The notes under the pieces are model-generated. The model was not told the DNA's origin. It saw only the letters and a program-made list of their open reading frames with translations, and made no database searches. A DNA stretch of 64,000 nucleotides from an uncultured Bacilli bacterium (lineage in GTDB: Bacteria; Bacillota_I; Bacilli_A; RF39; UBA660), in assembly GCA_944359065.1 (NCBI GenBank), contig CALVSP010000001.1, positions 4,314 through 68,313 of the forward strand, read 5' to 3'. Numbering within the stretch: the first letter of the stretch is position 1; the number at the start of each line of letters is the position of its first letter. A program made the position numbers and the translations under genes. This document shows positions 18,367 to 40,977 of this stretch, piece by piece.

Positions 18367-19578
18367 TTAAACTATCAAATTAGATTTAGATACAATTATA
18401 ATAGGCACAATTTTACAACTATCAGTTTTTAAACCTTTATAATATTTTGAATTATTATCGTCAATTTTTTGATATTGAAATGCACCATCATTATATTCAT
18501 TATTAATCCAATAACAACTATTAGAAACTAAATAACTAAAATTAGAATTATTAAATTTATAATATCCATCATTTGTGATTGCATAATTTAATTCATTATT
18601 TAATCTATCTTGATAATTTAAATTTCCAATTATAACATCAGATAAATTATTTCTTACTAAAACAGAATTATTAACATCTTTAGAAATAACTGATAATATA
18701 TCACTCATTTCTAATGGTTTTGACGTAACTTTCCAATTTTTAGTTATTTGATTCATAGTAGTAGTATAATTTTCATATGTACTTACATCAAAGCCACTAT
18801 TTAAATCTGGTAATAACTTAACTGTAGTATCTCCTACTTTATTTCTTGAATCAATTACATAAGTTTTTAAACAAAAAGCACTTACTTGATCACAGACTTT
18901 ATTATTAATAACATCATATAAAACAACATCACCTAAATTGTAATTAGTGTCTGATGTTTCATTAGTAATCATCATTTGTTCCGCTTTTATTTCAATAACC
19001 ACTTCTAAAGATGATCTTATTTCATAATCAGGATTAGATTGTTTTTTTTGTTGTTCTTCCATATAAAATTGATATGCTTTATTTCCCCATTCACTATCCA
19101 ATTCATCATTATTAGAATCAAGTGGCCATGATATAGAAACATTAAACTTACCACTATCACCATGAGATAAAGCATAGTCTTTATCTAAATTCATATTAAT
19201 ATGAAATGGGTAATCATGAGATAATTTATCTATTAATTCCTCATTAGAATTATTATTTAAAACTTCATTTAAAACTCTAACTGACTTAATATTATAACTA
19301 ATTTGGGCATCAGAATCCCCTAAATTAGCTATATCAACATCTTTAAATTCAGTATCCATACCAGGATGAATATCCGATAATGAGATAACAATTTCATTTG
19401 AAACAACTTGTTCACCATTTTTAAATTCAATATTCCAAGCTTTAATATCAACATCAACAGTAGCGCTTGATAAACCACTATAAGCAAACCAAGCTAAAGT
19501 AATAGAAACAAAAGAAATTGCAACAAAAAATAGCGACATCAAATTTAATTTCAAAAATAATTTATGCTTTCTTTCCAC
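18367..19578 (-). CDS. secreted protein with SipW-cognate-type signal peptide (SITLAWFAYSG)
   Basis: 403 aa. N-terminal K-rich region, a hydrophobic helix, then a T-L-A-W-F motif. Immediately downstream of the SipW gene, the same arrangement as sipW-tasA. Confidence 0.55.
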   Translation of the reverse strand: MERKHKLFLKLNLMSLFFVAISFVSITLAWFAYSGLSSATVDVDIKAWNIEFKNGEQVVSNEIVISLSDIHPGMDTEFKDVDIANLGDSDAQISYNIKSVRVLNEVLNNNSNEELIDKLSHDYPFHINMNLDKDYALSHGDSGKFNVSISWPLDSNNDELDSEWGNKAYQFYMEEQQKKQSNPDYEIRSSLEVVIEIKAEQMMITNETSDTNYNLGDVVLYDVINNKVCDQVSAFCLKTYVIDSRNKVGDTTVKLLPDLNSGFDVSTYENYTTTMNQITKNWKVTSKPLEMSDILSVISKDVNNSVLVRNNLSDVIIGNLNYQDRLNNELNYAITNDGYYKFNNSNFSYLVSNSCYWINNEYNDGAFQYQKIDDNNSKYYKGLKTDSCKIVPIIIVSKSNLIV

Positions 19579-19597
19579 TGTTACAACTCCTTTTCTT

Positions 19598-20152
19598 TTA
19601 CGCTTTTTTTCTTCTTTTTTCTTCTTTTTCTAGCATAGTCATAAGTATTTCAGAACCAATAATATATAAAAGTGGTATAAATATTAGGAAAAACATTCCA
19701 AATTTTGTAGCAACTATTTTATATATAAATGATAATATTATACATTTATATATAATTTTGCCATATACTTGACTTTCATAAACTATTGGATCTGGTGCAT
19801 CATTGGCGATACCTTGGGTATGAAAAATATATTTTCCATCTTCATCTTGTTCGATATTAATAACTTCGTGAGTTACAACTTTTCCAGCTAAAGTGCCTTG
19901 CTTACCTAAATAAGAAATAGAATCTCCAATTTCAATTTTAGATGGTTCAATCTCTTTAGCAATTAAAACATCGCCTATTTTATATTTTGGATCCATACTT
20001 CCAGATACAACAGTAAACATTCTAAAACTTAAAAATGATATTTTATTATTACTAAATCTTTGTAAAGCAACTACTAACAAAAATAAAATAATAAATATTG
20101 CAACAAATATATTTAAAATTGTTTTAATTATTTTAAAAGCCTTATTATTCAT
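19598..20152 (-). CDS. sipW: signal peptidase I, SipW/S26B (ER/archaeal) type
   Basis: 184 aa. N-terminal TM, VVSGSMDPKY (Ser nucleophile), VVTHEVI (His), TQGIANDAPD (counterpart of GDNNxxxD), C-terminal TM. Confidence 0.8.
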   Translation of the reverse strand: MNNKAFKIIKTILNIFVAIFIILFLLVVALQRFSNNKISFLSFRMFTVVSGSMDPKYKIGDVLIAKEIEPSKIEIGDSISYLGKQGTLAGKVVTHEVINIEQDEDGKYIFHTQGIANDAPDPIVYESQVYGKIIYKCIILSFIYKIVATKFGMFFLIFIPLLYIIGSEILMTMLEKEEKRRKKA

Positions 20153-20164
20153 ACTAACTAACCA

Positions 20165-21289
20165 CTACAAGTATTCTTGTGCCCTTTCTAAGTATTCTTC
20201 CATTGCATTTTTAAACTTTTTCTTAACATCATCCATACCAACTAATCTTTCACTTTTATCTTTTTTTATTTCTTTAGCTATCATATTTAATAATTCTTCA
20301 TCAGTTATTTCAATACCTGCACTTAATAATAAATCAACTATTCTTCTTATTTCTTCTCTTAACAATAAAACTGCGTTTTTAGCCATTTTTTTCTTTTGTT
20401 CTCTTTTAGAAGGAACTAAAGAATCTAAAACTAAATAATCTATTAAGAATGAGTGATCCAAAAATCCTTTTAATACATCATTTCCATTATCAGTATCATT
20501 TTCTTTTTTATTTTCATCATCCTCAAATTTTAATAAATATTCCCATAGTTTAACAGCAATTCTAAAGTTAGGATTCTTTAAAATGATATTAGTTTTCTTA
20601 ATTGGTGGCTTTATGAATGACACATGTGCTTTATCTAAAGCTTTATACATTTCACTTCTTTGCCAACTAGAAATATATTCTTTAATTCTTTTAATTCTAG
20701 CTTTGATTTTTTTAATTTCATCTTTAATTTTTTTGTCAACCTTTGCAGTTGGTAAAGTTTCTGATGTAACTTTTAATTCAATATCTAATTTTTCAAAATC
20801 AGTTACTGTTTTAGCAGAATACTCTAATACTTTATCATCACTTAATTCAAAATTATTAAGTAATTCCTCTTTTTCTAAAACAAATTTTAATAAAGAATCT
20901 ATTAGAGTATAGAGAAACCTATTTTCATATATATTATAGGTTTCTTCATTTCTAACATCCAATATTTTTTTAGGTTCAACACTTTTAGTTTTCTTATCAA
21001 CTTTATTAATATATTCAGTATGTTTACTCAAATCTTTAATACTTGCTACAGTAATTTTTTTTGATTTTTCAATTTTAACAGTATTTTCTTCTCTAATAAG
21101 TGCGATTTTAGGTTGTCTTACAATAATATCAATATATGGACAAGCATCTTCTATTACATCAATCCAATCAAAAGATACTAAATTACCTTCATAATCAGAT
21201 TTAAAAAACATCTCAGAGCCTAATTTTTTTAAAAATATATCAGTTCTATCTTTTACTTCTTTTTCAACTTCACATTTGAAATTGTCCAT
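20165..21289 (-). CDS. hypothetical cytoplasmic protein, apparently partnered with the McrB-like AAA+ gene (13 bp from the neighbours on each side)
   Basis: 374-aa ORF, K/E-rich, with no confidently recognisable nuclease motif. Confidence 0.4.
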   Translation of the reverse strand: MDNFKCEVEKEVKDRTDIFLKKLGSEMFFKSDYEGNLVSFDWIDVIEDACPYIDIIVRQPKIALIREENTVKIEKSKKITVASIKDLSKHTEYINKVDKKTKSVEPKKILDVRNEETYNIYENRFLYTLIDSLLKFVLEKEELLNNFELSDDKVLEYSAKTVTDFEKLDIELKVTSETLPTAKVDKKIKDEIKKIKARIKRIKEYISSWQRSEMYKALDKAHVSFIKPPIKKTNIILKNPNFRIAVKLWEYLLKFEDDENKKENDTDNGNDVLKGFLDHSFLIDYLVLDSLVPSKREQKKKMAKNAVLLLREEIRRIVDLLLSAGIEITDEELLNMIAKEIKKDKSERLVGMDDVKKKFKNAMEEYLERAQEYL

Positions 21290-21306: not shown

Positions 21307-22836
21307 CTATATGCTTTTCTTAAGATTTTGTAAATATGCAATACATTCTTTCATTACATCTTTACCAAATTTTTTATTCAAATAAGAAATAAATGGATCA
21401 ATTTCATCTCTAATTAAAGCAACACTTAATTGATCAAATTTTCTTAATATTTTTTTAGCAATAAAGTAATCAATAGCTTCGATTTCTTTACCACCACATG
21501 CTACATAAACAGGAACAAATACACCTAATTGTTTCATAATACGATTACCAAAAGCAATTCTAAAATGTTCAATAACGTAATCATCTATTTCTCCAACATA
21601 ATTTAATCCTTTATCAGATAATGGATATTTTTCAATTGCATCAGCGAATAAACTGTCTAAATAACTTGAATTTATTTTTACTACATCTTGTTCACGACAT
21701 TTAAATGGATCTACTTTTGTATTAATATCAATAGGCATTGCTCTATCATATACTTTATCAGTAACCATAAATGTTGAATCATCATTATTAATAGTACCAA
21801 TATACCAAATATTACCTGGTAATTTAATTTTTCCTTTAATTAATTTTTTAGGATCATCTGGCCAAGCACTAGGAACTAAATCTACTAACCATTCATCACG
21901 ACTAGGCATTTCAAGAATTGATAATAAATCCGCAAAATAATATTCAACACGTGCTAAATTCATTTCATCTAGAATAATTGTATGAACATCATCATCAAAT
22001 GAAGCAGCATATATTTCACCTAAAGCCTTAGTTTCATTAAACTTTTTAGTAAATTCATTGAAATATCCTAAAAAATCTGATTTATCTCTCCAAGATGGTT
22101 CAACAGAAGATACACAAGCATCCATACCCATAAATTTTCCCCAAGCATATGCTAAGGAAGTTTTACCAGTACCAGAGATACCTTGTAAAATAATTAACTT
22201 ACCACAAGCTAAGCCACCAAAGAAAGGCCTTAAAATTGTAAAATCATAATATAAATGTAATTGACTAGCAGCAAAACATCTAAAATCATCAATTAATTGC
22301 GCTAAAGTTGTATCGTTTTCATATTTTTTAATTTTATAACCTTCAAATTGTTCATCAATAGCCACCAATTTAGGAAATCTAATTCCTTTAATAACAGCAT
22401 CTTCTTCTTCCGGTTTTTCTTCTTCTTTATTTTCTTCAGTTTCTTCCTCAGGATTAATTCCTAATTGAGAAACTTTCATAGCCATTAATTCTTCTCTTTC
22501 TTTCATTAACTTTCTAACTTGATCATTTAAATTACCAATTTCAGTTAATAATTCATCTTTACTTAAATTATTATTTAATTTTCTTATAATTTTTTTAACT
22601 AATAAGAATATTAATAATGCTATTAATAAAACAATTATTATTAAACAAACAACACACATAACAACAAATATTTTTTCATTGCCATTAAAATTATCTTTAT
22701 AACTTTCAATTATTTTAGCGTAATCACCAAAACTAAACATCTGTTTAATACCATTAATAAATCCTTTAAAAGCATTAAACAATCCATCAAAAAAGATAGA
22801 TATAAATTCGTAAAAAAATCTCAAAAATGTATTCAT
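21307..22836 (-). CDS. membrane-anchored AAA+ ATPase of the AAA_5 / McrB-like class
   Basis: 509 aa. TM helix (FVVMCVVCLIIIVLLIALLIFLL), coiled coil, acidic linker. Walker A GISGTGKTS. Walker B/sensor HTIILDEMNLARVEYYFADLLSILE (compare McrB hhIDEINRa...fGEl..LLE). Also IGTINNDDSTF...YDRA. Confidence 0.6.
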   Translation of the reverse strand: MNTFLRFFYEFISIFFDGLFNAFKGFINGIKQMFSFGDYAKIIESYKDNFNGNEKIFVVMCVVCLIIIVLLIALLIFLLVKKIIRKLNNNLSKDELLTEIGNLNDQVRKLMKEREELMAMKVSQLGINPEEETEENKEEEKPEEEDAVIKGIRFPKLVAIDEQFEGYKIKKYENDTTLAQLIDDFRCFAASQLHLYYDFTILRPFFGGLACGKLIILQGISGTGKTSLAYAWGKFMGMDACVSSVEPSWRDKSDFLGYFNEFTKKFNETKALGEIYAASFDDDVHTIILDEMNLARVEYYFADLLSILEMPSRDEWLVDLVPSAWPDDPKKLIKGKIKLPGNIWYIGTINNDDSTFMVTDKVYDRAMPIDINTKVDPFKCREQDVVKINSSYLDSLFADAIEKYPLSDKGLNYVGEIDDYVIEHFRIAFGNRIMKQLGVFVPVYVACGGKEIEAIDYFIAKKILRKFDQLSVALIRDEIDPFISYLNKKFGKDVMKECIAYLQNLKKSI

Positions 22837-22839: not shown

Positions 22840-24882
22840 CTACTCTCCCCAATAACTTCCTATTTTACTTGCTATATCATCATAAGCAATTTTATTGTGT
22901 AATTCTTCTTTAATTGATGATAAAACATCAATCGATTCAAACATTTTCCCTTTTACTCTTTTATCGATAAATATGTATTCCATTGCTTCAACAATTCCTT
23001 GATCTTTTGCTTTAACTGCTGAAGTTTGTAAATCAACGGCAAATCTATATCCATCTTTAATTAATGATTTAATAACCTTTTTATTCTTTGACAATTCTTC
23101 ATATTGAGATAAAACAATAATATTATTTTTAGCATATTCATCACCAAATAAATTAAATATTTTATCTAACTTATTAGATTTAGTATATAAACTTTCTGGT
23201 ATATAGAATATATATTTTTTATTAAAATCAGCATTCAACATATCTTTAACAACTTGTACCAATAATAATGTTAATAAAACTTCTATTTTGTCTTCAGCAA
23301 CAATGCCATCATAATATGTTTTATCTACAATATAATCGCTATATACTTTACTAAAATTGATATTATGATTTAGTTCAACTGCGTAAGTATTTTTTATTGA
23401 TAAACTATTATAATTTAATTCAAATAAACTTGTTTCTAATTTTTCAATCGATTCTTTAACAATAGATTTATAAGTTTTTTGAATTTTTAATATACTACTA
23501 ATCATAGTATTCATTGTTTTTGGATCAACTTCAGTTCCAATTAATTTAACCATCTTATTTTTATAAGTTTGTTTTTTTATCTTAGTATCATCAATAACTA
23601 AATATGTGTGTTCTAAATGCATAATTAAAGTAAATATATTAGTGTATTTTTTTACCTTTTCACTATATTTATTATCAGTACCTTTATATACTTTAATCAT
23701 TTTTTCTGCTGCTTCTTTTAATGCATTTTCAATTCTAGTATTCATATTACGGCCATTATATTCAACATTGACATCTCCGCAATAATTATAATATTTACCA
23801 TCAATATAAACACTCATAAAGTTTTCTCTAATCGTTGCTTCATTAGTTTTTAAAGTTTCATCATTATTTAAAACTTCAATAATTTCCTTTAATTCTTCTT
23901 CTTTCATAAACATAGTTTTTTCGATTATATTTTTGAATTTTTTCTTTTTATTTTGTAACATTTCTAATTTTAATTCAACTTCAGCAACTTTAGGTTCTTC
24001 TTCTTTTTCTACAACGACTGGTTGTTCTTCTTCAATTTCAATTTTTTTAGCATAAGCATTTTCGATTTCATCTTTATCAACTTGAATCATTCTAAAATAC
24101 ATAGTTTTATCTAAATCTTCTGCTTCTAAAGGTTTTAAATCAGTAATTGTTTCATCAATTTTTTCATCTTTTACTTCTTCAACCTTAGTAACTTTTACTT
24201 CTTCATCTTCTTCTTTTATATTATTTTGAATTTTTTCTGGTTCTGATTTTTCTTTAATATATTCATCATTAACTATTTTTTTCTTATCCTTTTTAATTAA
24301 TTTAATAATATTTTTTATAAATATTTTTATTTTTTTAACTACATTTGCCATAAATACATCAAATTTCTTCATATCTTTTTCCTTCTTATTCTTCTTAATT
24401 GTTAATGTTACTAAATAAACAGTAATAATAATTGCAACTAAAACATAAGGATTAAATATTGTTTTTTTAAATATACCAAAAGCAGGTAATACTTTAACAA
24501 CTTTTCCAACTATTTGTTCTTGTGTAATTGGATCATCCTTAGCATCATTAGCATCACCTTTAGTTACATAAGTACCTTGGTATGCTTCAATAACTCTATG
24601 AGTTATAAATTCACCATCTTGCTTAAATGTAATAATATCATCTAATTTTATATTTTTAGAATACTTAACAACAATCCAATCACCAGGTTCAACTGCTTCT
24701 CCCATACTTCCTGTCTGCACTTCAAATACAGAGTAACCAAAAAAACTAGAGTAATCATTACCTAATAATTTAACTTGGATATTGTTGTATATAGAAATTA
24801 ATAATACTATTCCAAAAATAAAAATTAATATATTTAAACCAATATTGGCAACTTTTTCTAAAATTTTACCTTTATTTACCAT
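22840..24882 (-). CDS. fusion protein: N-terminal S26B/SipW-type signal peptidase domain plus a long K/E-rich coiled-coil and a C-terminal domain of about 380 aa of unknown function
   Basis: TM helix, QTGSMGEAVEPGDWIVV (Ser), FITHRVIEAY (His), TKGDANDAKDD, then a second TM (YVLVAIIITVYLVTLTI). Cytoplasmic extension of about 500 aa follows. Confidence 0.6.
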   Translation of the reverse strand: MVNKGKILEKVANIGLNILIFIFGIVLLISIYNNIQVKLLGNDYSSFFGYSVFEVQTGSMGEAVEPGDWIVVKYSKNIKLDDIITFKQDGEFITHRVIEAYQGTYVTKGDANDAKDDPITQEQIVGKVVKVLPAFGIFKKTIFNPYVLVAIIITVYLVTLTIKKNKKEKDMKKFDVFMANVVKKIKIFIKNIIKLIKKDKKKIVNDEYIKEKSEPEKIQNNIKEEDEEVKVTKVEEVKDEKIDETITDLKPLEAEDLDKTMYFRMIQVDKDEIENAYAKKIEIEEEQPVVVEKEEEPKVAEVELKLEMLQNKKKKFKNIIEKTMFMKEEELKEIIEVLNNDETLKTNEATIRENFMSVYIDGKYYNYCGDVNVEYNGRNMNTRIENALKEAAEKMIKVYKGTDNKYSEKVKKYTNIFTLIMHLEHTYLVIDDTKIKKQTYKNKMVKLIGTEVDPKTMNTMISSILKIQKTYKSIVKESIEKLETSLFELNYNSLSIKNTYAVELNHNINFSKVYSDYIVDKTYYDGIVAEDKIEVLLTLLLVQVVKDMLNADFNKKYIFYIPESLYTKSNKLDKIFNLFGDEYAKNNIIVLSQYEELSKNKKVIKSLIKDGYRFAVDLQTSAVKAKDQGIVEAMEYIFIDKRVKGKMFESIDVLSSIKEELHNKIAYDDIASKIGSYWGE

Positions 24883-24978: not shown

Positions 24979-26589
24979 TTAATCATTCTCTTTAATTTCT
25001 TTAGCAACAATTTTTTCAACTTGCACAATAAACCAAATCTTTTCAATTGTTGTTTCACTTTTTTCTATTTTATTTACTCTTAATATTAATAATATCTTAT
25101 TAAGTAAATTTTTAAGATTATCTTCATTTAAATCATCTTCACTAATATTAATACTATTTAATCGATATTTATTACTAATTGTTTTAGCAATATTATTACT
25201 AGAAAAAATTGGTACTCCAGTAATAATAATATTAGTTGGATTCATTGCAAACAAATCAAAATTATCGCTATATTTAATAATTTCATCATAATCAGTTATA
25301 TTATAAACTTTTTGAATTGTTAATTTTTTAAAATAATCAAAACTATAATATAAATTCAAAACATCAGAAATAGTTAATGTATCATTTAATATCATCATTA
25401 CTTTATCTTTAAAATATTCAATATCATAAGTTTTATATAACTCATATAATTCTTTAGCTTTTAAAACTGATTGTAATTTTAATTGCTTTAAAGCACTATC
25501 AGATCTAAACTCAAATAAACCTGGTTTACCACTAAAGATTTTCTTATTTAATTTTTCTAATTCATTTTCTTTAGTTTCTATTTGATCAATAATAGTTTTT
25601 AAACCTTTATACTCTTTTTTATCAGTAGTCAATAATTTTTCATATTCATCTTTAAAATACTTAAACATTGGATAAAACTCTAAATAATTTTGATATTCTA
25701 AAATATTTAATTTTAATTTTTCTAAAGCAGGCGCTACTTTATCAACATCAGTAACTTCTGGAATTAAAGAATCAAATGCTGTTTTGCGTCCTTTACTATC
25801 ACTTAAATATTGTTCGATATCTAATTCTTTAGTTTTAGCCATAGCTATTATGTCACTAATAGTTTCTTTACTTGCCATATTTAAATCAATATAAGCATCT
25901 TGTAATTTTTCTAAACAATGAGCATAATCTCTAATTTTATTTTTCTCCATTACTTCTTTTTGTAATGTTAAAATATAATTATTAAATTTACGACTATTTT
26001 TCTTAATTAACTTTCTAAAATTTAATTCTATATGTTGAATAAGTTCAGGATTTACCCAATAAATTTGTTCAAATATTTCTGATACTTTATCATAACTACT
26101 TAATCTTCTATTTCTTACTTCTAAAAAAGCAGTCATATATTCATGGACATAACAAGTATAATTAAAATCATCACTTTCTAAATGAATACCTGCTTGTTCA
26201 AACTTATCTAATAAACCATTTATTATTTCATTTAAAGATTTAAAATTAAATGTATCATAATTATTAATTTGATATAGTAAATCATCAAAACACATTTTTT
26301 CGACATAGGTATTAGTTGGATTTAAAAGAAATTTAACATTTTCTAAAGTTTCTAATTTTTCTGTTAATTGATCTAAATCAGTAGATTCTTTAACTTCAAA
26401 ACTTTTAGCCTTAGCAATTAAATAATTTCTAGTGCTAGTTTTATATTCTTCATATCTTTCAATTATATCATCAATTGTTTCATTAAATTTCTTTTTATTT
26501 GTTTTAGTTTTAGTAGGCATAGTGGAAATTAATGTTTTTTTTGCTTCAATATCTTTATTTATAAATTCTAAAAAATTATTCATCTTCAT
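24979..26589 (-). CDS. hypothetical all-alpha cytoplasmic protein
   Basis: 536 aa with no TM. Sits inside the same tightly spaced minus-strand gene string. Confidence 0.4.
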   Translation of the reverse strand: MKMNNFLEFINKDIEAKKTLISTMPTKTKTNKKKFNETIDDIIERYEEYKTSTRNYLIAKAKSFEVKESTDLDQLTEKLETLENVKFLLNPTNTYVEKMCFDDLLYQINNYDTFNFKSLNEIINGLLDKFEQAGIHLESDDFNYTCYVHEYMTAFLEVRNRRLSSYDKVSEIFEQIYWVNPELIQHIELNFRKLIKKNSRKFNNYILTLQKEVMEKNKIRDYAHCLEKLQDAYIDLNMASKETISDIIAMAKTKELDIEQYLSDSKGRKTAFDSLIPEVTDVDKVAPALEKLKLNILEYQNYLEFYPMFKYFKDEYEKLLTTDKKEYKGLKTIIDQIETKENELEKLNKKIFSGKPGLFEFRSDSALKQLKLQSVLKAKELYELYKTYDIEYFKDKVMMILNDTLTISDVLNLYYSFDYFKKLTIQKVYNITDYDEIIKYSDNFDLFAMNPTNIIITGVPIFSSNNIAKTISNKYRLNSINISEDDLNEDNLKNLLNKILLILRVNKIEKSETTIEKIWFIVQVEKIVAKEIKEND

Positions 26590-26736
26590 TTTCCTCTTCT
26601 AACTCTATTTTACTTTCAACTAAAAATTGCGAAAAATCTGTAATATTTTGATAAACTTCAATCAATTCTTTTAAAGTTAGTGTCGATAAATCGAAATCTA
26701 CTTTTTCTTCCCTTTTCATCTTATCACCTTTTTCCC

Positions 26737-27783: not shown

Positions 27784-27844
27784 TTTTCACCACCTAATTA
27801 ATAAAGGAAGAGTAATTAACCAAATTACTCTTCTTTATTATCAA

Positions 27845-31174: not shown

Positions 31175-31239
31175 AACTCTACCCCTTCATATTACCCTAT
31201 AAACTAGGGTCACTATGATATTCTTTACAATACAATATA

Positions 31240-31267
31240 ATTATAACATACATATTTTTTTTGTCAA
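31240..31267 (-). promoter_or_regulatory. consensus sigma-A promoter (TTGACA-16-TATAAT on the minus strand) driving cassette 1
   Basis: The minus strand reads ttgaca aaaaaaatatgtatgt tataat. ATTGTCGA direct repeats lie further upstream at 31273..31290. Duplicated at 41031..41058. Confidence 0.6.
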
Positions 31268-31477
31268 TATAATATGTCGATAATTGTCGAATTTAATTTT
31301 ACTTTGTTTTTCTTTATTTTACAATAGTTTTTTGTCAATCATTTACACTATTTCGTTATTTTTGTTAAATATTTTACACATATTGACATATATAAAATCA
31401 CATTTTACACTTTTATGTTGATTTTTTACACATATATATGTATAATAAAGATGTAAAAGAAGAAAGAAGGGTTTTAA

Positions 31478-32155: not shown

Positions 32156-32689
32156 TTATTCTTCTACATCTACTTCATCACCATATTTAATTTCAACTAT
32201 TAATGCATATAATTCATAAATAAAGATTAAGAAACAAGGTACTAATACGATAAATAAGAAGCCCCATTGTGATTCGATAATTCCTAACACTCCTCCAATA
32301 TCATTATATACTTTAGTAGGTCTACCAATTAAATATTTGATTGAATATGTTTCACCATTTTCTAATGTAAGATAATCATCCATAACTTCTCCAACTTTAC
32401 CAATATTGATATCAGCAGTTTTAGACATCTTATCGACTTTATAAACGAATACTTCTTCACCTTTTTGTAAATTTTCTGGTGCAGCTTCTTCAACTAAAAC
32501 TAAATCACCTTTTTGATATTCTTCATGACTTACCTTATCTTTTAAAATTACTAATGAAGTTTCACCAAATACTGTTACACGATAATCATTGAAATTCAAA
32601 AGTAAAATTGTCATAAATAATGCAAAGGTAAAATAAACAATTCCTAATGTTACTAATAATACTTTCTTAATTTTTTTTAAAACTTTCAT
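32156..32689 (-). CDS. SipW-like topology protein (N- and C-terminal TM helices flanking a beta-rich domain) lacking recognisable catalytic Ser and His; candidate inactive signal-peptidase paralogue
   Basis: 177 aa. TM1 VLLVTLGIVYFTFALFMTILLL. The domain contains KGDLVLV and EVFVYKV. TM2 FLFIVLVPCFLIFIYELYALIV. No GSM or THRV motif. Confidence 0.35.
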   Translation of the reverse strand: MKVLKKIKKVLLVTLGIVYFTFALFMTILLLNFNDYRVTVFGETSLVILKDKVSHEEYQKGDLVLVEEAAPENLQKGEEVFVYKVDKMSKTADINIGKVGEVMDDYLTLENGETYSIKYLIGRPTKVYNDIGGVLGIIESQWGFLFIVLVPCFLIFIYELYALIVEIKYGDEVDVEE

Positions 32690-32698: not shown

Positions 32699-33556
32699 TT
32701 AATTACATTCTACTTCTAATAAAGAAAATTCATTTATATCATAAGTAGCTGCTTTATCTACTTTATAAAATATATAACTTAAATTATCCTTACTAGGTAT
32801 TTCTAAAATTATTTCATTAATATAACCATCTGTCATATTATAGTTTGTTATATTTTCATTATCAATTCTTAATTTATTAGCATCCCAATTTATTTTGACA
32901 CATTTTTTAGTATCAGAAGAATTAGTTACTGTTAATCTATCATAATTAGAAAATGATTGATATAGCATATCTGTTTTTTCTATTAAGTTTTTATCCTTTT
33001 TAAGAATAAATGTACCAGTTAATTTTTTTTCATATGGTTCAGTAGTAACAACTTCAATATTAGCAGTTACATTATCATTTTCTACATCAAAATATATATC
33101 TGAAGTTGCTTTTTGAATAACCCAATCGTAACCTTTTACTTCACAAGTTGCTTTATCAAAATCAGTTGTATCGACACCATCATTTGTATTATTTACGCAA
33201 CTATTATAACTAGACAATGTTCCATAATAAACATTCGAATCAGTTCCATTGATTTTACAATCACTACCATCATCTAATGTACAAGTTACTTTATATTTTA
33301 TATCATAATCAGTAACTAAAGCATCGTTGATATTATTTTTTAAATTGAAATGAATACTTGTTCCATCCCAAACATTATTAACATTTTTTACATTGTTCCC
33401 TAATTGATCACTACTTAAATAAAATCCTTGAGAATTTAAATAATAATTCCAAACTGTATTAGATACATATTTTGCTAAGGTAAAACCATTAGTAATAAGT
33501 AATATTGTACCTAAAAATATAACAATCATTATTAAATATTTGCGCATTTTAATCAC
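32699..33556 (-). CDS. secreted protein with SipW-cognate-like signal (NGFTLAKYVSNT)
   Basis: 285 aa. Overlaps the upstream gene by 8 nt. Confidence 0.5.
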   Translation of the reverse strand: MIKMRKYLIMIVIFLGTILLITNGFTLAKYVSNTVWNYYLNSQGFYLSSDQLGNNVKNVNNVWDGTSIHFNLKNNINDALVTDYDIKYKVTCTLDDGSDCKINGTDSNVYYGTLSSYNSCVNNTNDGVDTTDFDKATCEVKGYDWVIQKATSDIYFDVENDNVTANIEVVTTEPYEKKLTGTFILKKDKNLIEKTDMLYQSFSNYDRLTVTNSSDTKKCVKINWDANKLRIDNENITNYNMTDGYINEIILEIPSKDNLSYIFYKVDKAATYDINEFSLLEVECN

Positions 33557-34085
33557 CTAACTTCTGCCAACTATTTATTTCCACATCAATGAAATCTGCT
33601 AAATTTGTATATTCTAATGAATTATACTCACTAGGGAAAGTTACTTTTAATTTATAATTATCTAACGTTTCATTTGTATGTTCTAGTGTTTGAATTGAAG
33701 AATTACATACCAATTCATTTTTTTCATTTCTTGAATAAGTCTCATCACATTTCATTATTAATTCTTCCGTTTCCCCTACTTTATATAATTCAATATCTAA
33801 AGGCATAAAATGAAATGTTTTAATAGTAATTTGATATTCAACTGTTACATTACTTAATTCATTATCCTTATTAGCAACTGAAAATAAATACTCTTCATTA
33901 CTACCAGGATTTAAATTACTTAAATTTAACTCTAAATGATCTAATTGTTTACTTTCAAATACAAATTTAGCGATTTTTTGATCTACTTTTATATTACTGT
34001 TAGAATTAAACATTGAATATGTAACACCAGTACCTAAAAATATAGTTATTAAAATAAATAAAATTATCAATACTTTATGTTTCAT
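33549..34085 (-). CDS. TasA/camelysin-sized secreted protein with SipW-cognate signal (GTGVTYSMFNSNSN)
   Basis: 178 aa. Lies 10 bp downstream of the 1109-aa gene. Confidence 0.55.
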   Translation of the reverse strand: MKHKVLIILFILITIFLGTGVTYSMFNSNSNIKVDQKIAKFVFESKQLDHLELNLSNLNPGSNEEYLFSVANKDNELSNVTVEYQITIKTFHFMPLDIELYKVGETEELIMKCDETYSRNEKNELVCNSSIQTLEHTNETLDNYKLKVTFPSEYNSLEYTNLADFIDVEINSWQKLGD

Positions 34086-34094: not shown

Positions 34095-37000
34095 CTATCT
34101 AACAATAAATTTCTTTTCGATTGTTCCTATTTTAGTTGTACCATCGTATAATTCAATTACAAATTTGTAACCACCTAACATATTTTTAAGTTCTAATTTA
34201 TTAGGTAATTCATAAATATTATCAGTTATTTTATTTAACTGTGTAGTAGTGTAATTATTTAAATCAACTAGTGAATAATCTTGATTATAGGCTGATAAAA
34301 CTTGTTTTTTATATAATGAAATTCTAACAATTGGATTAGTAAAATTACCAGTTTTAATTACATCAAAATTAATTATATTGTCTGTTATAACATTATTAAA
34401 TGATACATCAAATCCATAATCAATTGTAACGTTGTTAGTTACGGTTATAGGAATAGTTATTTCATTACTATATGTATTAGCATATTTTCCATCATAAGAT
34501 GCAAGTGCTTTTATTTTAAAATAATAAGTTCCTGTTTCTAATTTACTATTATCAACTGAAGTAGTTATTTCTAAATTACCAATATCAGGTATTCTAACTA
34601 TACCATCATTACTTGGTGAATATTCTTTTCCATTTACTTTAAATGTTAAATTTTTTAAGTATTCCTTATTTACTATATTTCCATTTTTATCAACTAATCT
34701 AATATTTAATCCCATTATTTTATCTTCATATGTTGTATCATTTATTTGATTACCATTTATAAAATCATATACTAAATTACTTGTAATATCAATTGTATTA
34801 ATAGAATCACTATTATAAATAATTGTGTCGCTATAATTAGAACTAATATTTATACTAGCACTACTTTCATAAATATTAAATGGTTTTAAAGTAGTTGTTA
34901 AAGTTTTAATTACACTATCTTGATTATTTAATTCCATAGTTATTTTAATATCTTCAACATTAGTTATATCAGTATTCTTAAAATCTAAAACAATAGTAAA
35001 ATTTTCATTTATTTGATTTGTGTAATTATCTTCATTAAATAAATTATCACTACCTACTTCTTTAAATAAAGTTAAATTATAAATTGTATCTTGTTTATCA
35101 ACTGTATATGTATATACTTTATTTTGATTATTATCAATTAAAGTTATTTTTGTATTAAGTGGTAAAGAAGTATTAGATACAATACTATGTATTTTTCCTT
35201 CATTATAATCATAACTTGATTGATAACTTACATTTAAAGTTATAGATGATTTATTTGTTATATAATTTGTAGTAAAGTTATTATTTCTACCAGCATTTAA
35301 ACTATCAACACTATAGCCATCAAATATTATATATTCACTATTAACATAAGTAACATAATCAGCATTATCAATTACTTTAACATATAAAATATAAGTACCT
35401 TTATTATCAATTGTTATTTTATCATTATAAGTATTCCAACTAATACTTTCTAATTTATCTTCAGTTATTATTTCATTAGATAAATAATATTCCACACTTT
35501 TAATACCAGATAAATTATCAATAGCAGTTATTGTTAAATCGGTATTTTCATTTATATAATTTTTAATAGTTGGATTATTTAATTTATTCCAAGTTTTATC
35601 ATTCATATTAATAGTAACTTCAGAACCAGATAAATCTACTATAATTAAATCAGAGTTTAAATAATAGATATTATCATTATTATCAACTACTTTAGCATAT
35701 ATAACATATTTACCTTCATTATTTAATTCAGCTATATTTTCATAATTAATAAAAGTTAAATTTTGTATTTCTTCTTTTGTTAATTCTTTATCACTAATAT
35801 AATAACTAACTTCTTTAAATGGTCTCAATGGATCAATTTGTTCAATACTAAATGCTGTTGCTTTATTAAATTTAATTGAATTTAATTCATATCCTAAATT
35901 ATTCCATGAATATGTTCCAACATGAATATTAGCAATTGGATTATTTATATCATCAGTAGCTAAAATAGGAAAACTTCCTTCTTCATAAACCCAAACATTT
36001 TCTACATTATTAGCTAAATCTGTACTGTCAATAAATTCATTAAATTGCAAATTATTGATAACAAAATCTTTATCTTTTAAATTATTAACATCTGTTAATG
36101 TAACACTACCAAATATACTTCCTTCATTTGTTACATTACCATCAGTATAATAAGAGTTTTTAAAACTAACAACACTACTTATAATAGAATTTACTAAATA
36201 TGTTGTCTCGGTAGCAAAAGAATTATTAATAGTTAAATTACCATTTGTAACATTATTAATTAAGTGAGTAACATTACCTGTACTATAAATTTTGTTTAGT
36301 GTTCCTTTACCATGAAGTTTATTAATTAATCCAGATGTTTTATCACCTGATAATGTTCCATTATTATATGATTTATTAATTGTAATATCATTAGTATATC
36401 CTACTAAACCAACACTATTTTTACCTATAACATTAGATTTATTAATAACATTACTTAAAGTAATTTTATCTGCCTTAGCAACTATTCCACTACTAATACC
36501 ATAATTATAAGTTACATCATAAGTTAAATTATCTAAAGTTATACTAGTATCTATAACTATTTTACTAATATTTCCCAAGTCAAGACTAAAATCACCAGTT
36601 ACTTGATTATTATTAATTTTTATTTTATTTTCACCAATATTACCTTTAATTGTAACATTAGTTATATCACCTTTTATATAAGGAATCATTACATTAGAAA
36701 AATTAGAAATTGTAGGAACATTAAATGTTTCTGTTTTAGATAATTCTTCATTAGTACCAACAACATAACCATTATATAAAACATTAGTTATATTAGAATT
36801 AGTAGCACTAGAAGCAATTCCAGCAGTAATATTACCACCATAAACCATTGAATTTTCAACATATAAATTACTTACATTGCCACTTAAATTAGTAAATAAA
36901 CCTACTTCTTCATTTTCACTAGAAATATATAAACCATATATTCTAAAATAATTACCATCTAAATTACCTTTAAAATTATTTAAAGATTCAAATAAATTGA

Positions 37001-37424
37001 TATTTTTTATTTTAGTACCAGTTTTATCTACATTATCATATATTTCATTAGTATTCTCTTTTACATAAAATGTCGTATTATTTAATTTATATTTAATACC
37101 TTCTTCATCATAACTAAAAATGCCATCATTTAAAACAATATCCTTATTTAATTCAAAATATGTATCAGCATAATCAGTAGTCTCTAACATTTGCGCAAAA
37201 TAAGCCAATTCGTTACCATTAGAAATAATATAGGGGTCTTCTAAAGTACCACTACCACTTCGATAACTAGTAGCGACATTTCCATCCCAAACATCAATTT
37301 CTTTAATAGTATTCCTGTTTTTATAGCGCGCTAAACTAGGTATCATAATAGAACAAACTAATATTAAACATAAAATTAAAATTAAATAATTCTGCTTAGG
37401 TATTCTTTTCAACAAATCTTTCAT
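34095..37424 (-). CDS. large (1109 aa) secreted repeat protein, probably a beta-helix / GLUG-like N-domain followed by Ig-like repeats, with SipW-cognate-like signal (PSLARYKNRN)
   Basis: After the signal comes GSGTLEDPYIISNGNELAYFAQML, which is typical of Firmicute beta-helix surface proteins. Highly N/T/S-rich repetitive sequence. Own promoter with extended -10 (tgttataat) at about 37450. Confidence 0.5.
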   Translation of the reverse strand: MKDLLKRIPKQNYLILILCLILVCSIMIPSLARYKNRNTIKEIDVWDGNVATSYRSGSGTLEDPYIISNGNELAYFAQMLETTDYADTYFELNKDIVLNDGIFSYDEEGIKYKLNNTTFYVKENTNEIYDNVDKTGTKIKNINLFESLNNFKGNLDGNYFRIYGLYISSENEEVGLFTNLSGNVSNLYVENSMVYGGNITAGIASSATNSNITNVLYNGYVVGTNEELSKTETFNVPTISNFSNVMIPYIKGDITNVTIKGNIGENKIKINNNQVTGDFSLDLGNISKIVIDTSITLDNLTYDVTYNYGISSGIVAKADKITLSNVINKSNVIGKNSVGLVGYTNDITINKSYNNGTLSGDKTSGLINKLHGKGTLNKIYSTGNVTHLINNVTNGNLTINNSFATETTYLVNSIISSVVSFKNSYYTDGNVTNEGSIFGSVTLTDVNNLKDKDFVINNLQFNEFIDSTDLANNVENVWVYEEGSFPILATDDINNPIANIHVGTYSWNNLGYELNSIKFNKATAFSIEQIDPLRPFKEVSYYISDKELTKEEIQNLTFINYENIAELNNEGKYVIYAKVVDNNDNIYYLNSDLIIVDLSGSEVTINMNDKTWNKLNNPTIKNYINENTDLTITAIDNLSGIKSVEYYLSNEIITEDKLESISWNTYNDKITIDNKGTYILYVKVIDNADYVTYVNSEYIIFDGYSVDSLNAGRNNNFTTNYITNKSSITLNVSYQSSYDYNEGKIHSIVSNTSLPLNTKITLIDNNQNKVYTYTVDKQDTIYNLTLFKEVGSDNLFNEDNYTNQINENFTIVLDFKNTDITNVEDIKITMELNNQDSVIKTLTTTLKPFNIYESSASINISSNYSDTIIYNSDSINTIDITSNLVYDFINGNQINDTTYEDKIMGLNIRLVDKNGNIVNKEYLKNLTFKVNGKEYSPSNDGIVRIPDIGNLEITTSVDNSKLETGTYYFKIKALASYDGKYANTYSNEITIPITVTNNVTIDYGFDVSFNNVITDNIINFDVIKTGNFTNPIVRISLYKKQVLSAYNQDYSLVDLNNYTTTQLNKITDNIYELPNKLELKNMLGGYKFVIELYDGTTKIGTIEKKFIVR

Positions 37425-37549: not shown

Positions 37550-38866
37550 TTATTCATTTGTTGTTGGAACATCTGGTCCATCATAATCAGGGAAATCTGA
37601 TTGATTGTATCTTTCTTTAGTGAATCCGAAGTTAATAGTAATTTTCTTTCCTAAAGATGCGAAATCATAGTTATCAATATCTTGTCCTTCAATCCATACA
37701 TAAACTCTTAATTTAGTAATACTATTTGGAGCTAATGTCATAAATTGTGGACGATCTTTACCAGCAACATTTTTCATTGTATCAGTAAAATATGGGAATT
37801 CGATTAATTTCATTGCACCTTTTTGTCCTGGTTGTGTTCCTTCTGCAGCAGCATTGTATTCTGCTAATGTATTAGTATTAGCTGTATATTTATTATAAGC
37901 AGTACCATCATAAATATTAACATTATCATCAACACCAATTGTTCTACTAATAGCATATGTTGGATAAGCAGTTGTTGTATTTAATGTTTTACATGGTGTA
38001 GCATCAGTATAAGATGCACTTGAATTAACATCTGAACCAGTTCTTTCTAAACAAGATTCATTATACCAATTAATAGCATTTTGTACGTGTTTAGTATCAT
38101 TTGGTTCCCAAATTTGAGCATCTCTACAAATACCTGTAACATGTTTTGGTTCATCTGCATCATCTGCACTACTAGCACAAGTCATACTTGTTACTAATTT
38201 TTGATTTTCTGGTACATCTGTATCTAGAGCAGCACTTACACGTCCTAATTGAACAAATCCAACTCTTACTGAATTTTCAATACCAGCTTTACCTTCACCA
38301 TCTAAAGCAACTGTAACAGCTGAATTAGTATTTAAATAAATTGCTTCTTCATTTAAAACATTATTTTCTGGATAATAAGGATTTCCTGATAAGTTCTTAA
38401 CAAATAAGTCAAATGCTATATATCCATCACCTTCAACATATTCTTTTGAACTAGTTGATCCACCTACTTGTTTAGTATGATTATCAACTTGACTAGATAA
38501 TAATCTATAACCACCAGTAACAGCAGTTAAACTTCCTTTTTCATATAACTTCATTCTTGATGAAGTTGCATCCATTTCACCAATTGAAGACATTGGAATT
38601 AAACCTTGTTTAGGTTGATCTAACCATTGATTTGCATTTCCATCATAAGCATGGGCAGTTTTTGCATCTAATGTATAAACCCAATCTTTTCCATCCATTG
38701 ATAAGAATAAACCTTCGGTTGTTGCAATATTAATATCGAATTCTGTTACATTAACAGTTTTCATACCTATAAACCATGCATAAGTTGAAACTGATAATAA
38801 AATAGCACATAAAGCACAAAGAGTAATCAGATTTCTTACTTTTTGATTTTTCTTTCTTCTTTTCAT
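37550..38866 (-). CDS. secreted protein, SipW-cognate signal; paralogue of 27845..29146
   Basis: 438 aa. STYAWFIGMKTVNVTEFDINIATTEGLFLSMDG. C-terminus identical in motif (RVYVWIEGQDIDNYDFASLGKKITINFGFTKERY). Confidence 0.55.
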   Translation of the reverse strand: MKRRKKNQKVRNLITLCALCAILLSVSTYAWFIGMKTVNVTEFDINIATTEGLFLSMDGKDWVYTLDAKTAHAYDGNANQWLDQPKQGLIPMSSIGEMDATSSRMKLYEKGSLTAVTGGYRLLSSQVDNHTKQVGGSTSSKEYVEGDGYIAFDLFVKNLSGNPYYPENNVLNEEAIYLNTNSAVTVALDGEGKAGIENSVRVGFVQLGRVSAALDTDVPENQKLVTSMTCASSADDADEPKHVTGICRDAQIWEPNDTKHVQNAINWYNESCLERTGSDVNSSASYTDATPCKTLNTTTAYPTYAISRTIGVDDNVNIYDGTAYNKYTANTNTLAEYNAAAEGTQPGQKGAMKLIEFPYFTDTMKNVAGKDRPQFMTLAPNSITKLRVYVWIEGQDIDNYDFASLGKKITINFGFTKERYNQSDFPDYDGPDVPTTNE

Positions 38867-38876
38867 TTTATACCTC

Positions 38877-40295
38877 CTAATTTATTGTCCATATATCATC
38901 TACTCGCGTAGCTGTTTTTTTAACTCCACCATCTTTAAATGTAAATTTAGTCATCCAATTTGGTAAAGTAAATTCCTTTTTGTCATTATCATAAGTAATT
39001 TTTGAATTTGAAATATCAGTTATTTCACCAGTATTAACATAAGATACTGTTTGGTCTCTAACTACATCATCTGGTAATTCTGGATCACCATCATAATCGA
39101 TATCTTCTCCATAGAATCTTTCTTTAGTAAATCCAAATGATACAGAGATCTTTCTTCCTAACGAAGCAAAATCATAGTTGTCTATATCTTGTCCTTCTAT
39201 ATAAATATAGATTCTTACCTTAGTAATACTATTTGGAGCAAGTGTTATAAAATCAGGTCTATTAACTCCTTCATTAAATTTATCAGTATCAGTAAAGTAA
39301 TCTACTTTGTATAGTTTACCTTTTTGATATGAACTCGCTATTGATTTGGTATAGCCATTATATTCTTTACCATCATACACATCAACTTGATCTGTATAAT
39401 CAATAACACCACTTACAGCATAAGTTGGATAATAAACTCCATCTTTAATAGTTTTACAAGGTCCACTAAATGAAGCAGGATTAGTTATATCACTGCCAAT
39501 TCTTTTACGACATGATGTTGTATACCAACTAATAGCATTAGTAACATGTTTAGTGTCATTAGGTTCCCAAATTTGAGCATCCCTATCAGCACATATACCA
39601 GTAACATCATCATTTGATTTACAAGTAATGCCTGTAATTACATCAACATCATCTTCTACTGCTATAACACGTCCGATTTGTGCAAAAGCTACTCTTACCG
39701 AATTTTCAATACCAGCCTTTATTTCTCCATCTTCAGCAACTTTTACTTCTGATTCTGGATCTAAATAAATTGCCTCTTCGTTTTTTGGATTTAATTCTTT
39801 ATAGTATGCATGACCTGATTTATTTTTAATAAATAAATCGAACGCAACATATCCATCAACCTCTTTAGCGCCAGTATTTTCTACTCTTTCAGCCATTACA
39901 CGATAACCACCAGGTGATGCTGTAAAACTTCCTTTTTCATACATTATAAGTCTTGATGAGCCAGTATCAATCTTACCAACTGATGAAACAGGAACTAATC
40001 CTTTGCCACCCCAACTGTTAGTGTTTCCAGGATAACTTACAGTTTTATGATTTTTTTCATTAATAGTTACTGTTGTTTCCCAATTTTCTCCATCTAATGA
40101 TAATAATAAACTATCAATAGCAGCAATGGAAACATCAAAACTAGAAACATTAACAACCTTCATACCAATAAACCATGCATAAGTTGAAACGGTTAGAATA
40201 ATCGTACATAAAACAGCAGCAACAAGTAATTTTTTTACTCTTGTTTCATGTTTTTTCTTACGTCTTCTCATAATCCCTTCTTTCTTATTCTGCAT
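38877..40295 (-). CDS. secreted protein, SipW-cognate signal; paralogue of 29215..30459 with an extra C-terminal extension of about 60 aa
   Basis: 472 aa. STYAWFIGMKVVNVSSFDVSIAAIDSLLLSLDG. Confidence 0.55.
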   Translation of the reverse strand: MQNKKEGIMRRRKKKHETRVKKLLVAAVLCTIILTVSTYAWFIGMKVVNVSSFDVSIAAIDSLLLSLDGENWETTVTINEKNHKTVSYPGNTNSWGGKGLVPVSSVGKIDTGSSRLIMYEKGSFTASPGGYRVMAERVENTGAKEVDGYVAFDLFIKNKSGHAYYKELNPKNEEAIYLDPESEVKVAEDGEIKAGIENSVRVAFAQIGRVIAVEDDVDVITGITCKSNDDVTGICADRDAQIWEPNDTKHVTNAISWYTTSCRKRIGSDITNPASFSGPCKTIKDGVYYPTYAVSGVIDYTDQVDVYDGKEYNGYTKSIASSYQKGKLYKVDYFTDTDKFNEGVNRPDFITLAPNSITKVRIYIYIEGQDIDNYDFASLGRKISVSFGFTKERFYGEDIDYDGDPELPDDVVRDQTVSYVNTGEITDISNSKITYDNDKKEFTLPNWMTKFTFKDGGVKKTATRVDDIWTIN

Positions 40296-40977
40296 CTATT
40301 GGTTTAAAATTCATACGAACTTTAAATTCACCACCCAAAATATTATCAGTACAATCAGGATCTTCGCCTTCAATCCATAAAACTATTGTATACTTGTCAA
40401 TATCGTTAGGTTTAAAATTAGTAACATCTTCACTCATGATTATATTATCATCAATAAAAGGAATTGTATTTGGTTCTGCTTCTCCTTCGCTTGATAATTT
40501 TGCATAAGTAAGATATTCTCCATTCTTATAAATTCTAACTCTGATGGCAGCATCAACATTCTTGATAACATCATCGATAATAACTTCTCTAGTATAACTA
40601 GCAATTTCATCACCAGTATTTTCAATATAAAATGTATATACTAAATAACTATCGCCATTATGTGATCCACCTTCATAATCTTTGATTTCTTCAGGTAGCC
40701 ATATTTCCTTAATACTATTAAAAGTTTCAGGTGCTTTAGCAAGTAGTTCTGTACGATATACTTTATATTGGAAATCGTCATAAATAATTATGCCATTATC
40801 TAAATAAAGATTTTTATCGAGTGTTATGCTAAAATTACCACTATTATAAACAATACCTATTACAAAATATAAAATAAGTAAAAGCAAAAGTAATAATATC
40901 ACAGCTAGTTTAAATTTTTTCTTGAGTTTTTTTTCTTTTTTTAATTTATCGGTAGTTTTAGTAAATTTACTTTCCAT
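40285..40977 (-). CDS. membrane-anchored 230-aa paralogue of 30479..31174; first gene of cassette 2
   Basis: Near-identical TM plus NSGNFSITLDKNLY. C-terminal KYTIVLWIEGEDPDCTDNILGGEFKVRMNF. Confidence 0.55.
   Translation of the reverse strand: MESKFTKTTDKLKKEKKLKKKFKLAVILLLLLLLILYFVIGIVYNSGNFSITLDKNLYLDNGIIIYDDFQYKVYRTELLAKAPETFNSIKEIWLPEEIKDYEGGSHNGDSYLVYTFYIENTGDEIASYTREVIIDDVIKNVDAAIRVRIYKNGEYLTYAKLSSEGEAEPNTIPFIDDNIIMSEDVTNFKPNDIDKYTIVLWIEGEDPDCTDNILGGEFKVRMNFKPIDAE

Follow-up and report, generated by a model that had tools for sequence, protein, structure and literature searches.

A CoCoPALM-Type Locus of Uncultured Gut Bacilli Combines TasA-Style Secreted Proteins, SipW-Like Peptidases and a McrB-Type GTPase

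Results

We analysed a stretch of 64,000 nucleotides (the window) from contig CALVSP010000001.1 of an uncultured Bacilli bacterium (assembly GCA_944359065.1), in which a locus of about 22.6 kb, at positions 18367–40977, holds the genes of about a dozen TasA-style proteins secreted to the surface, together with those of signal peptidases and a McrB-type GTPase. All genes of the locus lie on the minus strand except that of a protein of 203 amino acids (aa) at 31478–32089 (+), and the positions given below for the locus refer to the minus strand unless marked otherwise. The layout is as described in an initial annotation, made from the sequence alone, which had called the region almost entirely one-stranded and whose coordinates of open reading frames (ORFs) hold. 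The same annotation claimed that no system of such composition had been described. This was wrong in the strict sense, since the association of a McrB-like GTPase, a McrC homologue and a signal peptidase had already been named CoCoPALM, in three sentences and with the analysis deferred, in a survey of McrBC systems by Bell et al. (eLife 2024; PMC11090510). The locus is a system of the CoCoPALM type, a kind named yet uncharacterised; our literature search found no later paper using the term.

Searched with the GTPase, 185,579 species genomes yielded at least 397 relatives, of which the 80 best, with a GTPase identity of 54–99%, were used for the mapping of the locus. All 80 come from uncultured gut or rumen Bacilli, 'Tenericutes' or mislabelled bins. 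When all 18 window proteins were scanned with Pfam and NCBIfam, most of them remained without a family.

The secreted proteins of the locus have a common type of N-terminus. Ten of its 19 ORFs of at least 100 aa, as compared with 0 of the 45 ORFs outside it (Fisher p 6e-7), contain at least two K/R residues, a hydrophobic stretch and then the motif [ST]x[AS]x[FYW], all within the first 75 aa. The sites are STYA|WF, NTYS|RY, ITYS|MF, FTLA|KY, PSLA|RY and ITLA|WF, with Ser or Thr at P3, Ala or Ser at P1, and an aromatic residue at P2′ throughout. Two further proteins, of 230 and 231 aa, carry the variant Y-N-x-G-x-F and were counted apart from the ten. Thus, the N-terminal architecture noted in the initial annotation stood, while its count of at least 13 proteins had to be lowered to ten plus the two variants. 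The motif is retained in the orthologues of every family, down to species with a GTPase about 55% identical, which indicates that it is under selection. TasA is cleaved at T-W-A|A-F, and its P2′ Phe and P3–P4′ context make it a poor substrate of LepB and a substrate of SipW (PMC10269814). The sites in the locus have the form of the P3–P2′ segment of TasA, including the aromatic P2′.

Other readings of these N-termini were rejected. The conserved small-residue site follows the hydrophobic helix, where the class III site of type IV or Com pilins would precede it, and the Pfam scans of the locus revealed no T2SSE, T2SSF or Peptidase_A24. Sortase-assembled pili were dismissed because none of the 18 proteins ends in an LPXTG-like motif and no sortase family match was obtained in the locus. 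The reading of the secreted proteins as lipoproteins was rejected on motif grounds.

Three genes of the locus encode signal peptidase homologues. The 184-aa protein (19598–20152) is an archaeal/ER-type signal peptidase I, which matches TIGR02228 with 78.9 bits (curated cut-off 51.85) and keeps the catalytic motifs. Its score with NF046067, the equivalog model of Bacillus SipW, was 68.5 bits, under the cut-off of 190, so we call it SipW-like and not a SipW orthologue. The second homologue is a 680-aa fusion protein (22840–24882; Peptidase_S24, 9.4e-6) with TGSM, THRV and GDAN conserved. Its residues ~1–170 form a SipW-like peptidase with two transmembrane segments (TMs), which is followed by a K/E-rich linker and a cytoplasmic domain of about 330 aa. 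The third is a 177-aa protein (32156–32689) with an N-terminal and a C-terminal TM and a weak match to TIGR02228 (1e-4), whose family occurs in 62 loci. The roles of the Ser, the His and the GDxN..D boxes are known from SipW of B. subtilis, whose Ser-His dyad is also stated in PMC10269814. In an alignment of 26 orthologues the boxes [ST]GSM...TH[EQR]V...G(D)AN..D are kept in the 184-aa and 680-aa families. The 177-aa family shares the two-TM architecture, and both Ser and His are gone in every orthologue (10 are included in the alignment), indicating that this protein is not a Ser-His enzyme. Three Ser-His peptidases of the S26B type had been annotated initially; the three homologues are there, with Ser, His and Asp intact in two of them and not in the 177-aa protein. 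As judged from these alignments, the locus has two intact ER-type peptidases and one conserved pseudo-enzyme.

In the more distant clade the GTPase gene is preceded by the gene of a free-standing protein of about 330 aa, which can be aligned to the C-terminal portion of the 680-aa protein. This indicates that the latter is an active peptidase fused to a cytoplasmic partner of the GTPase. As a gene fusion of the Rosetta-stone kind, the SipW::330-aa protein links the peptidase with the cytoplasmic module.

The module includes a membrane-tethered McrB-type GTPase of 509 aa (21307–22836) with a Walker A motif GISGTGKTS, a Walker B motif LDEMN and an NxD motif in the form N-N-D-D. It matches E. coli McrB in the PDB with an E-value of 7e-4, in an alignment that spans both Walker motifs and the signature motif, and the PADLOC family PDC-M26A with an E-value of 2.5e-36. 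All three motifs are invariant in 81 GTPase orthologues, and N350-N-D352-D353 aligns with the NTAD signature of McrB; the GTPase is apparently active, as far as its motifs tell. A TM at residues 62–80 (Kyte–Doolittle hydropathy, KD, 3.84) is followed by a conserved heptad-like stretch, LLxEIxxLNxxVxxLMKEKxExxAMKVSQLG. Beginning 17 nt past the GTPase gene, the next gene (20165–21289) encodes a 374-aa protein that matches DUF2357 at residues 53–148 (1.3e-11) and, by inspection, has a K/E-rich middle region. DUF2357 is the N-domain of McrC, which activates McrB (PMC11090510). No nuclease was detected in the 374-aa protein: PD-(D/E)xK was absent in Pfam at E<=0.1, in PADLOC and in the PDB profile search, in which the family profile had no match. 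The membrane-anchored McrB-like AAA+ protein and partner of the initial annotation were therefore confirmed and can be specified as an NxD McrB-type GTPase and a partner with the McrC N-domain DUF2357.

Two further proteins, both presumably cytoplasmic by their predicted features, are encoded next to the large-subunit genes described below. The 536-aa protein (24979–26589) is helical and lacks a TM or signal. In relatives its gene comes after the large-subunit genes, and it gave no informative match in Pfam or the PDB; matches of its family to GST in the PDB profile search were judged spurious. The start of its gene is overlapped by a micro-ORF (26576–26719), absent from the initial annotation, which encodes an acidic protein of 47 aa (MKREEKVDFDLSTLTLKELIEVYQNITDFSQFLVESKIELEEENEDE), also without TM or signal. 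Counterparts of 32–58 aa with the pattern DLSxLSxxELxExYxxIxxFxxFL are present at the equivalent position in 19 of 24 loci, and in two loci (L001 and L082) the micro-ORF is annotated as a gene.

Five of the secreted products are paralogues of 348–472 aa, alignable over their full length, which we refer to as large subunits. Type A comprises a 472-aa protein (38877–40295), which has a C-terminal extension of 58 aa, and its 414-aa paralogue (29215–30459), 67% identical to it. The type B proteins, of 438 aa (37550–38866) and 433 aa (27845–29146), are 71% identical to each other. The 348-aa protein (26737–27783), type C, is divergent (32–35% identity to the other paralogues) and keeps STYAWF and RVYVWIEGQDID; STYAWF is likewise the motif of the 472- and 438-aa proteins. 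Genes of the anchor type precede the large-subunit genes in relatives, and in the window these are the genes of the two membrane-anchored 'head' proteins, of 230 aa (40285–40977) and 231 aa (30479–31174), 57% identical to each other. Their hydrophobic segment has a KD value of about 3.3–3.36, as compared with 1.8–2.9 for the cleavable signals, and this far higher hydrophobicity fits permanent membrane anchors. The C-terminal block RVYIWIEGQDIDN of the large subunits is homologous to the block IVxWxEGxDPxC of the anchors (hhalign 93.7%, E 2e-7, 44 columns), in agreement with the initial annotation, in which a block common to both families had been noticed. The 230-aa head protein is a candidate for the fibre base or nucleator.

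Metagenomes contain the large-subunit family in abundance. It has 3,074 matches at 90% clustering and 1,764 clusters at 50%, and is devoid of Pfam domains and names, save for occasional extra Ig-like domains at the C-terminus. In some relatives these C-terminal additions match Bact_surface_Ig-like (4.6e-11), InlK_D3 and Big_13. Together with the 58-aa extension of the 472-aa protein, they suggest that extra modules are added at the C-terminus. We modelled the 433-aa protein with AlphaFold2 (AF2; mean predicted local distance difference test score, pLDDT, 91; predicted template modelling score, pTM, 0.88). The model consists of a helix at residues 2–36 and a mostly beta body, with lower confidence at residues 31–50, where the predicted cleavage site and the residues behind it are located. 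A Foldseek search of the PDB with this model gave no significant match; the top-ranked neighbours, none of them significant, were Saci_0406 threads, archaeal bundling pili and cannulae. The family profile searched against PDB sequences gave nothing useful, and the comparison of the 348–472-aa proteins with TasA/camelysin (Peptidase_M73, PF12389) gave no match of profile or fold.

A relationship to TasA is indicated for the small subunits. The 178-aa protein (33549–34085; ITYS|MF) appears to belong to the TasA/camelysin family: 8 of its 28 orthologues match Pfam Peptidase_M73 (best E 1e-5), two orthologues bear the NCBI label 'TasA family protein', and one has a precomputed PF12389. The likeness to TasA and camelysin proposed in the initial annotation is thus supported for this family. 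An hhalign comparison with B. subtilis TasA, to be read as a lead and not a test, aligned 62 columns from the cleavage motif to the NLSNLxPG strand (65%, E 5.9e-5). The 203-aa protein (NTYS|RY) is of a family paralogous to the 178-aa one (hhalign 96.3%, E 1.5e-9), and the position and opposite orientation of its gene are maintained in relatives. Its AF2 model is a jelly-roll sandwich with a pLDDT of 72, built from a shallow multiple sequence alignment. The profiles of the 203-aa and 178-aa families searched against PDB sequences gave nothing useful.

Three other secreted proteins carry the motif. The signal region of the 285-aa protein (32699–33556; FTLA|KY), whose gene has a conserved position, is alignable with that of the 203-aa family. 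The 403-aa protein (18367–19578; ITLA|WF) is encoded by the last gene of the peptidase/GTPase operon, which in almost every locus comes after that of the 184-aa peptidase. Over its 66 N-terminal columns it is alignable with the family of the large subunits (probability 88%). Both the 285-aa and 403-aa families resemble the others in the signal/N-terminal region alone. The 1109-aa protein (34095–37424; PSLA|RY), whose gene adjoins the 178-, 285- and 177-aa genes in relatives, is a candidate adhesin or tip component. The beta-helix-like character assigned to it initially was not confirmed, as it had no match in Pfam or the PDB and a weak match of the OmpL47/Ig type.

When the 18 window proteins were mapped on the 80 loci, the modules were syntenic in 80/80. 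The core order begins with the pseudo-peptidase, the 203/178/285-aa small subunits (often with the 1109-aa protein), the 680- or 330-aa protein and the GTPase, and continues with the DUF2357 protein, the 184-aa peptidase, the 403-aa protein, the opposite-strand protein of the 203-aa type, the anchor, the large subunits and the 536-aa protein. The gaps between the genes of the 680-aa protein, the GTPase, the DUF2357 protein, the 184-aa peptidase and the 403-aa protein are 3–19 nt. The synteny in 80 genomes indicates that the locus is one unit; conservation as a unit had been proposed as a check in the initial annotation, and the locus, the AAA+ pair included, is indeed kept together in these genomes. 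The window departs from the core in that its modules are permuted and its structural cassette is duplicated, the cassette 230-472-438 corresponding to 231-414-433 with the respective identities of 57, 67 and 71%.

Each cassette is preceded by a promoter/operator element. That of cassette 1 (41031–41081) reads TTGACA-16-TGnTATAAT, preceded by a direct repeat, TCGACAAT-AG-TCGACA, and that of cassette 2 (31240–31290) is its duplicate. Both are predicted as perfect sigma-70 promoters with an extended −10 region, and that of cassette 1 scored 12/12. About 75 bp around the two promoters are ~90% identical, exceeding the conservation of the cassette coding sequences (57–71% aa identity). The pattern TCGACAAT-NN-TCGACA occurs in the window at the two cassette sites only, with 0.01 expected, and it was also found upstream of the anchor gene in two relatives (L007 and L035). 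The repeat is probably an operator for some regulator. The 5′ untranslated region of the 231-aa gene contains, between the promoter and the start codon, a short hairpin ACCCTAGTTTATAGGGT at 31190–31215, which the leader of the 230-aa gene lacks, though identical in other respects. A terminator-like hairpin with an 11-bp stem and a T-rich tail, assigned by consensus match only, follows the 433-aa gene (27807–27833). The G+C content of the large-subunit genes (27845–30459 and 37550–40295) is 0.31, as compared with ~0.24 in the surroundings, which is consistent with high expression in a low-GC genome.

The window as a whole has a G+C content of ~25%. It matches, at 99%, contig CAMLWC010000002.1 of a metagenome-assembled genome (MAG) of an uncultured gut 'Tenericutes' bacterium (locus L002), and a second matching sequence is an ENA gut metagenome scaffold (locus L001). 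We take 'Tenericutes'-labelled MAGs of such type, as well as 'Clostridium sp. CAG:567', to be RF39-type lineages. On one side the locus is flanked by genes of an FtsH-like protein, a fragment of a penicillin-binding protein (PBP) and a rhodanese, and on the other by genes of a staphylococcal nuclease (SNase)-like protein, LexA, FtsK, enolase and MurD. No relatives of the large subunits were found in the viral contig collection. The housekeeping flanks and the lack of relatives in viral contigs led us to reject a prophage or plasmid origin, and we place the locus on the chromosome of a walled, low-GC organism of the class Bacilli.

Several other features of the window were recorded. The SNase-like protein (41065–41721, +) is membrane-anchored and encoded divergently from cassette 1, and the LexA repressor is encoded near that cassette (42611–43228, +). 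The PBP-like ORF (16841–17752, −; 303 aa) ends about 50 residues into the transpeptidase domain and is kept in this truncated form at 95–97% in L002 and L003. The FtsH-like ORF (15217–16491, −; 424 aa) has the AAA and Peptidase_M41 domains and is devoid of the usual N-terminal membrane part. These two ORFs may be truncated or rearranged genes. A 423-aa protein encoded outside the locus (11060–12331, −), with a Listeria-Bacteroides repeat (Flg_new, 3.3e-15), is a probable further surface protein. A cluster at 58855–59090 (+) comprises all three tRNA genes of the window: tRNA-Ile(GAT), tRNA-Asn(GTT) and tRNA-Glu(TTC).

Discussion

The locus shares with the published CoCoPALM description a McrB-like GTPase of the NxD type, with a shortened NxD followed by D, an adjacent McrC homologue with DUF2357, and the association with the signal peptidase family (PMC11090510). 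Here, this association involves three genes, two of which flank the GTPase pair, and it is held in the 80 loci. As to the FtsB-like TM and coiled coil of CoCoPALM, we saw the architecture alone, namely the TM at residues 62–80 and the heptad-like stretch. The substrates, pseudo-peptidase, anchors, large subunits, micro-ORF and peptidase fusion are described only here.

Compared with the operons tapA-sipW-tasA of B. subtilis, calY/camelysin of B. cereus and sipW-bsaABC of C. perfringens, the locus is 5–8 times larger and has two active peptidases and one dead one. In contrast to these operons, its bulk subunits (348–472 aa) form a separate family without a Pfam model, and its obligatory cytoplasmic neighbours, the GTPase among them, have no counterpart there. 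The archaeal donor-strand filaments that we compared are the threads of S. acidocaldarius (Saci_0406), bundling pili and cannulae, all processed by archaeal-type signal peptidase I. In these, the Sec signal is cut just before the N-terminal strand, and the gene clusters include paralogous minor subunits (PMC9715654), as proposed here for the locus. With E. coli McrBC the locus has in common the GTPase fold and motifs and an activator gene with DUF2357 immediately downstream. However, the DNA-binding domain is lacking, with a TM and a coiled-coil-like stretch at the N-terminus of the McrB-like protein, no PD-(D/E)xK nuclease was detected, NxD replaces NxxD, and the genes are set in a secretome operon. 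The 177-aa protein recalls SipA/LepA of S. pyogenes, a protein of signal peptidase fold free of catalytic residues and encoded in a pilus locus (PMC4049620). Nevertheless, SipA is of the P type (Ser-Lys lineage) and acts with sortase pili, whereas the 177-aa protein is of the ER type and has no sortase or LPXTG companion.

We consider it probable that the locus builds a SipW-dependent surface fibre or pilus whose assembly is coupled to a nuclease-less GTPase module derived from McrBC. Pre-subunits would be inserted via Sec and retained by their signal anchors. Cleavage by the SipW-like enzymes would then release an N-terminal strand, which, by analogy with TasA, BsaA and archaeal threads, could enter the neighbouring subunit in donor-strand complementation. 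In C. perfringens, BsaA oligomers are membrane-anchored and SipW cleavage follows strand exchange, and efficient BsaA export requires the ATPase-containing type IV pilus genes (PMC11580942); the mention of 'McrB' in the same paper is irrelevant to the locus. The bulk of the polymer would be supplied by the two duplicated cassettes (anchor, type A, type B), each with an identical consensus promoter/operator. The 230- and 231-aa proteins, which share the EGxDxD block of the C-termini of the subunits, may serve as the membrane base or nucleator, in a role like that of TapA. The 178-, 203-, 285- and 403-aa proteins and the 1109-aa protein would be minor, adaptor, tip or adhesin components. The 177-aa pseudo-peptidase might be a chaperone that binds signal or cleavage regions, similarly to the inactive SipA, which is essential for pilus polymerisation in S. 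pyogenes (PMC4049620). Finally, the GTPase, as a hexamer, would join the McrC-like protein, as a stalk, in a cytoplasmic module that also takes in the 330-aa domain, the 536-aa protein and the 47-aa peptide and couples GTP hydrolysis to processing, to polymerisation or to extrusion through the wall; this step is the least certain of all.

Several observations weigh against such a fibre or against its coupling to the GTPase. The fibre is predicted from the genes of uncultured organisms. Additionally, TIGR04088 had no match among eight N-terminal fragments (NCBIfam, E<=10), and TIGR04090, the model of the BsaA family, gave a single sub-threshold match, to the 348-aa protein (12.5 bits, E 0.087, cut-off 60). 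These results limit the likeness to the SipW-cognate class to a shared site logic. The initial assignment of the signals to this class is, accordingly, upheld at the level of the cleavage motif, which is that of TasA at P3–P2′, and not at the level of profile models. The window's own copy of the 178-aa protein did not match Peptidase_M73 at E<=1, and the model of the 203-aa protein resembles generic jelly rolls, with no specific neighbour. Moreover, the filaments of TasA, threads and cannulae assemble without an NTPase (PMC9715654), so the GTPase may serve another role. Within the NxD clade, an immune function is predicted for every relative of the GTPase (PMC11090510).

The secreted proteins might form an S-layer-like coat, or might be adhesins or enzymes that share SipW-dependent export, with the GTPase acting as a quality-control factor or dislocase for signal anchors. 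The fold of the large subunits has no significant solved relative, some family members bear extra Ig-like surface domains, and five paralogues enriched in G+C (0.31 vs 0.24) would suit an abundant coat protein; even so, we regard this explanation as unlikely. The affiliation of the GTPase brings up another one, in which the GTPase and the McrC homologue are the core of a CoCoNuT-like immune system of the NxD McrBC clade that senses infection, for instance by a phage that uses the pilus as a receptor, with its sensing or its effector function carried out by the pilus proteins. Both the match to the PADLOC defence candidate PDC-M26A (2.5e-36) and the predicted restriction or RNA-targeting functions of the other clade members (PMC11090510) would fit this. 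However, no nuclease or effector domain was detected in the McrC homologue or the neighbours, and a TM and a coiled-coil-like stretch replace the N-terminal domain of nucleic-acid-binding specificity. Furthermore, the stable synteny, the graded identity of 54–99% over 80 species and the housekeeping context are unlike a patchy defence island, and an immune role appears quite improbable.

McrBC systems are common and mobile, and the McrBC-like pair could in principle be an unrelated island that came by chance to lie inside a SipW-type secretome locus. The gene order held in all 80 loci examined and the gaps of 3–19 nt argue against this, as does the independent report of the same association, in which the link between McrBC and signal peptidases was recognised as 'pilus assembly linked' (PMC11090510). 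The constant core and the duplicated, regulated cassettes exclude such a juxtaposition, and we give it practically no weight. The preferred explanation, that of a fibre assembled with the participation of the GTPase module, can also be put in a stronger and distinctly more tentative form. In this form the locus would represent an NTP-driven filament pathway of Gram-positive bacteria, in which an exapted, nuclease-stripped ring of a McrB-type GTPase, physically coupled to a SipW-type peptidase, gates or powers the donor-strand polymerisation of a hitherto unrecognised family of 350–470-aa subunits with ~1,760 clusters, and would specify the main surface organelle of the prevalent RF39-like gut Bacilli. 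We find this possible, with the balance somewhat against it.

The current view of donor-strand fibres of the TasA, thread and cannula types is one of self-assembly, with their passage through a thick wall as a standing question. The locus obligatorily ties a secretome of the donor-strand type to a GTPase derived from McrBC, which suggests an energised route of assembly. It also suggests that a defence ATPase was co-opted for the biogenesis of the cell envelope, which would be a clear example of exaptation. The parts list presented here, with the substrates, cleavage motif, pseudo-peptidase, anchor, micro-protein and fusion, extends the three-sentence mention of CoCoPALM to a testable model. 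About 22 kb of the genome are devoted to this system, which hundreds of uncultured gut species have in conserved form, and the large-subunit family is probably a major surface antigen or adhesion structure in the gut microbiota of humans and animals.

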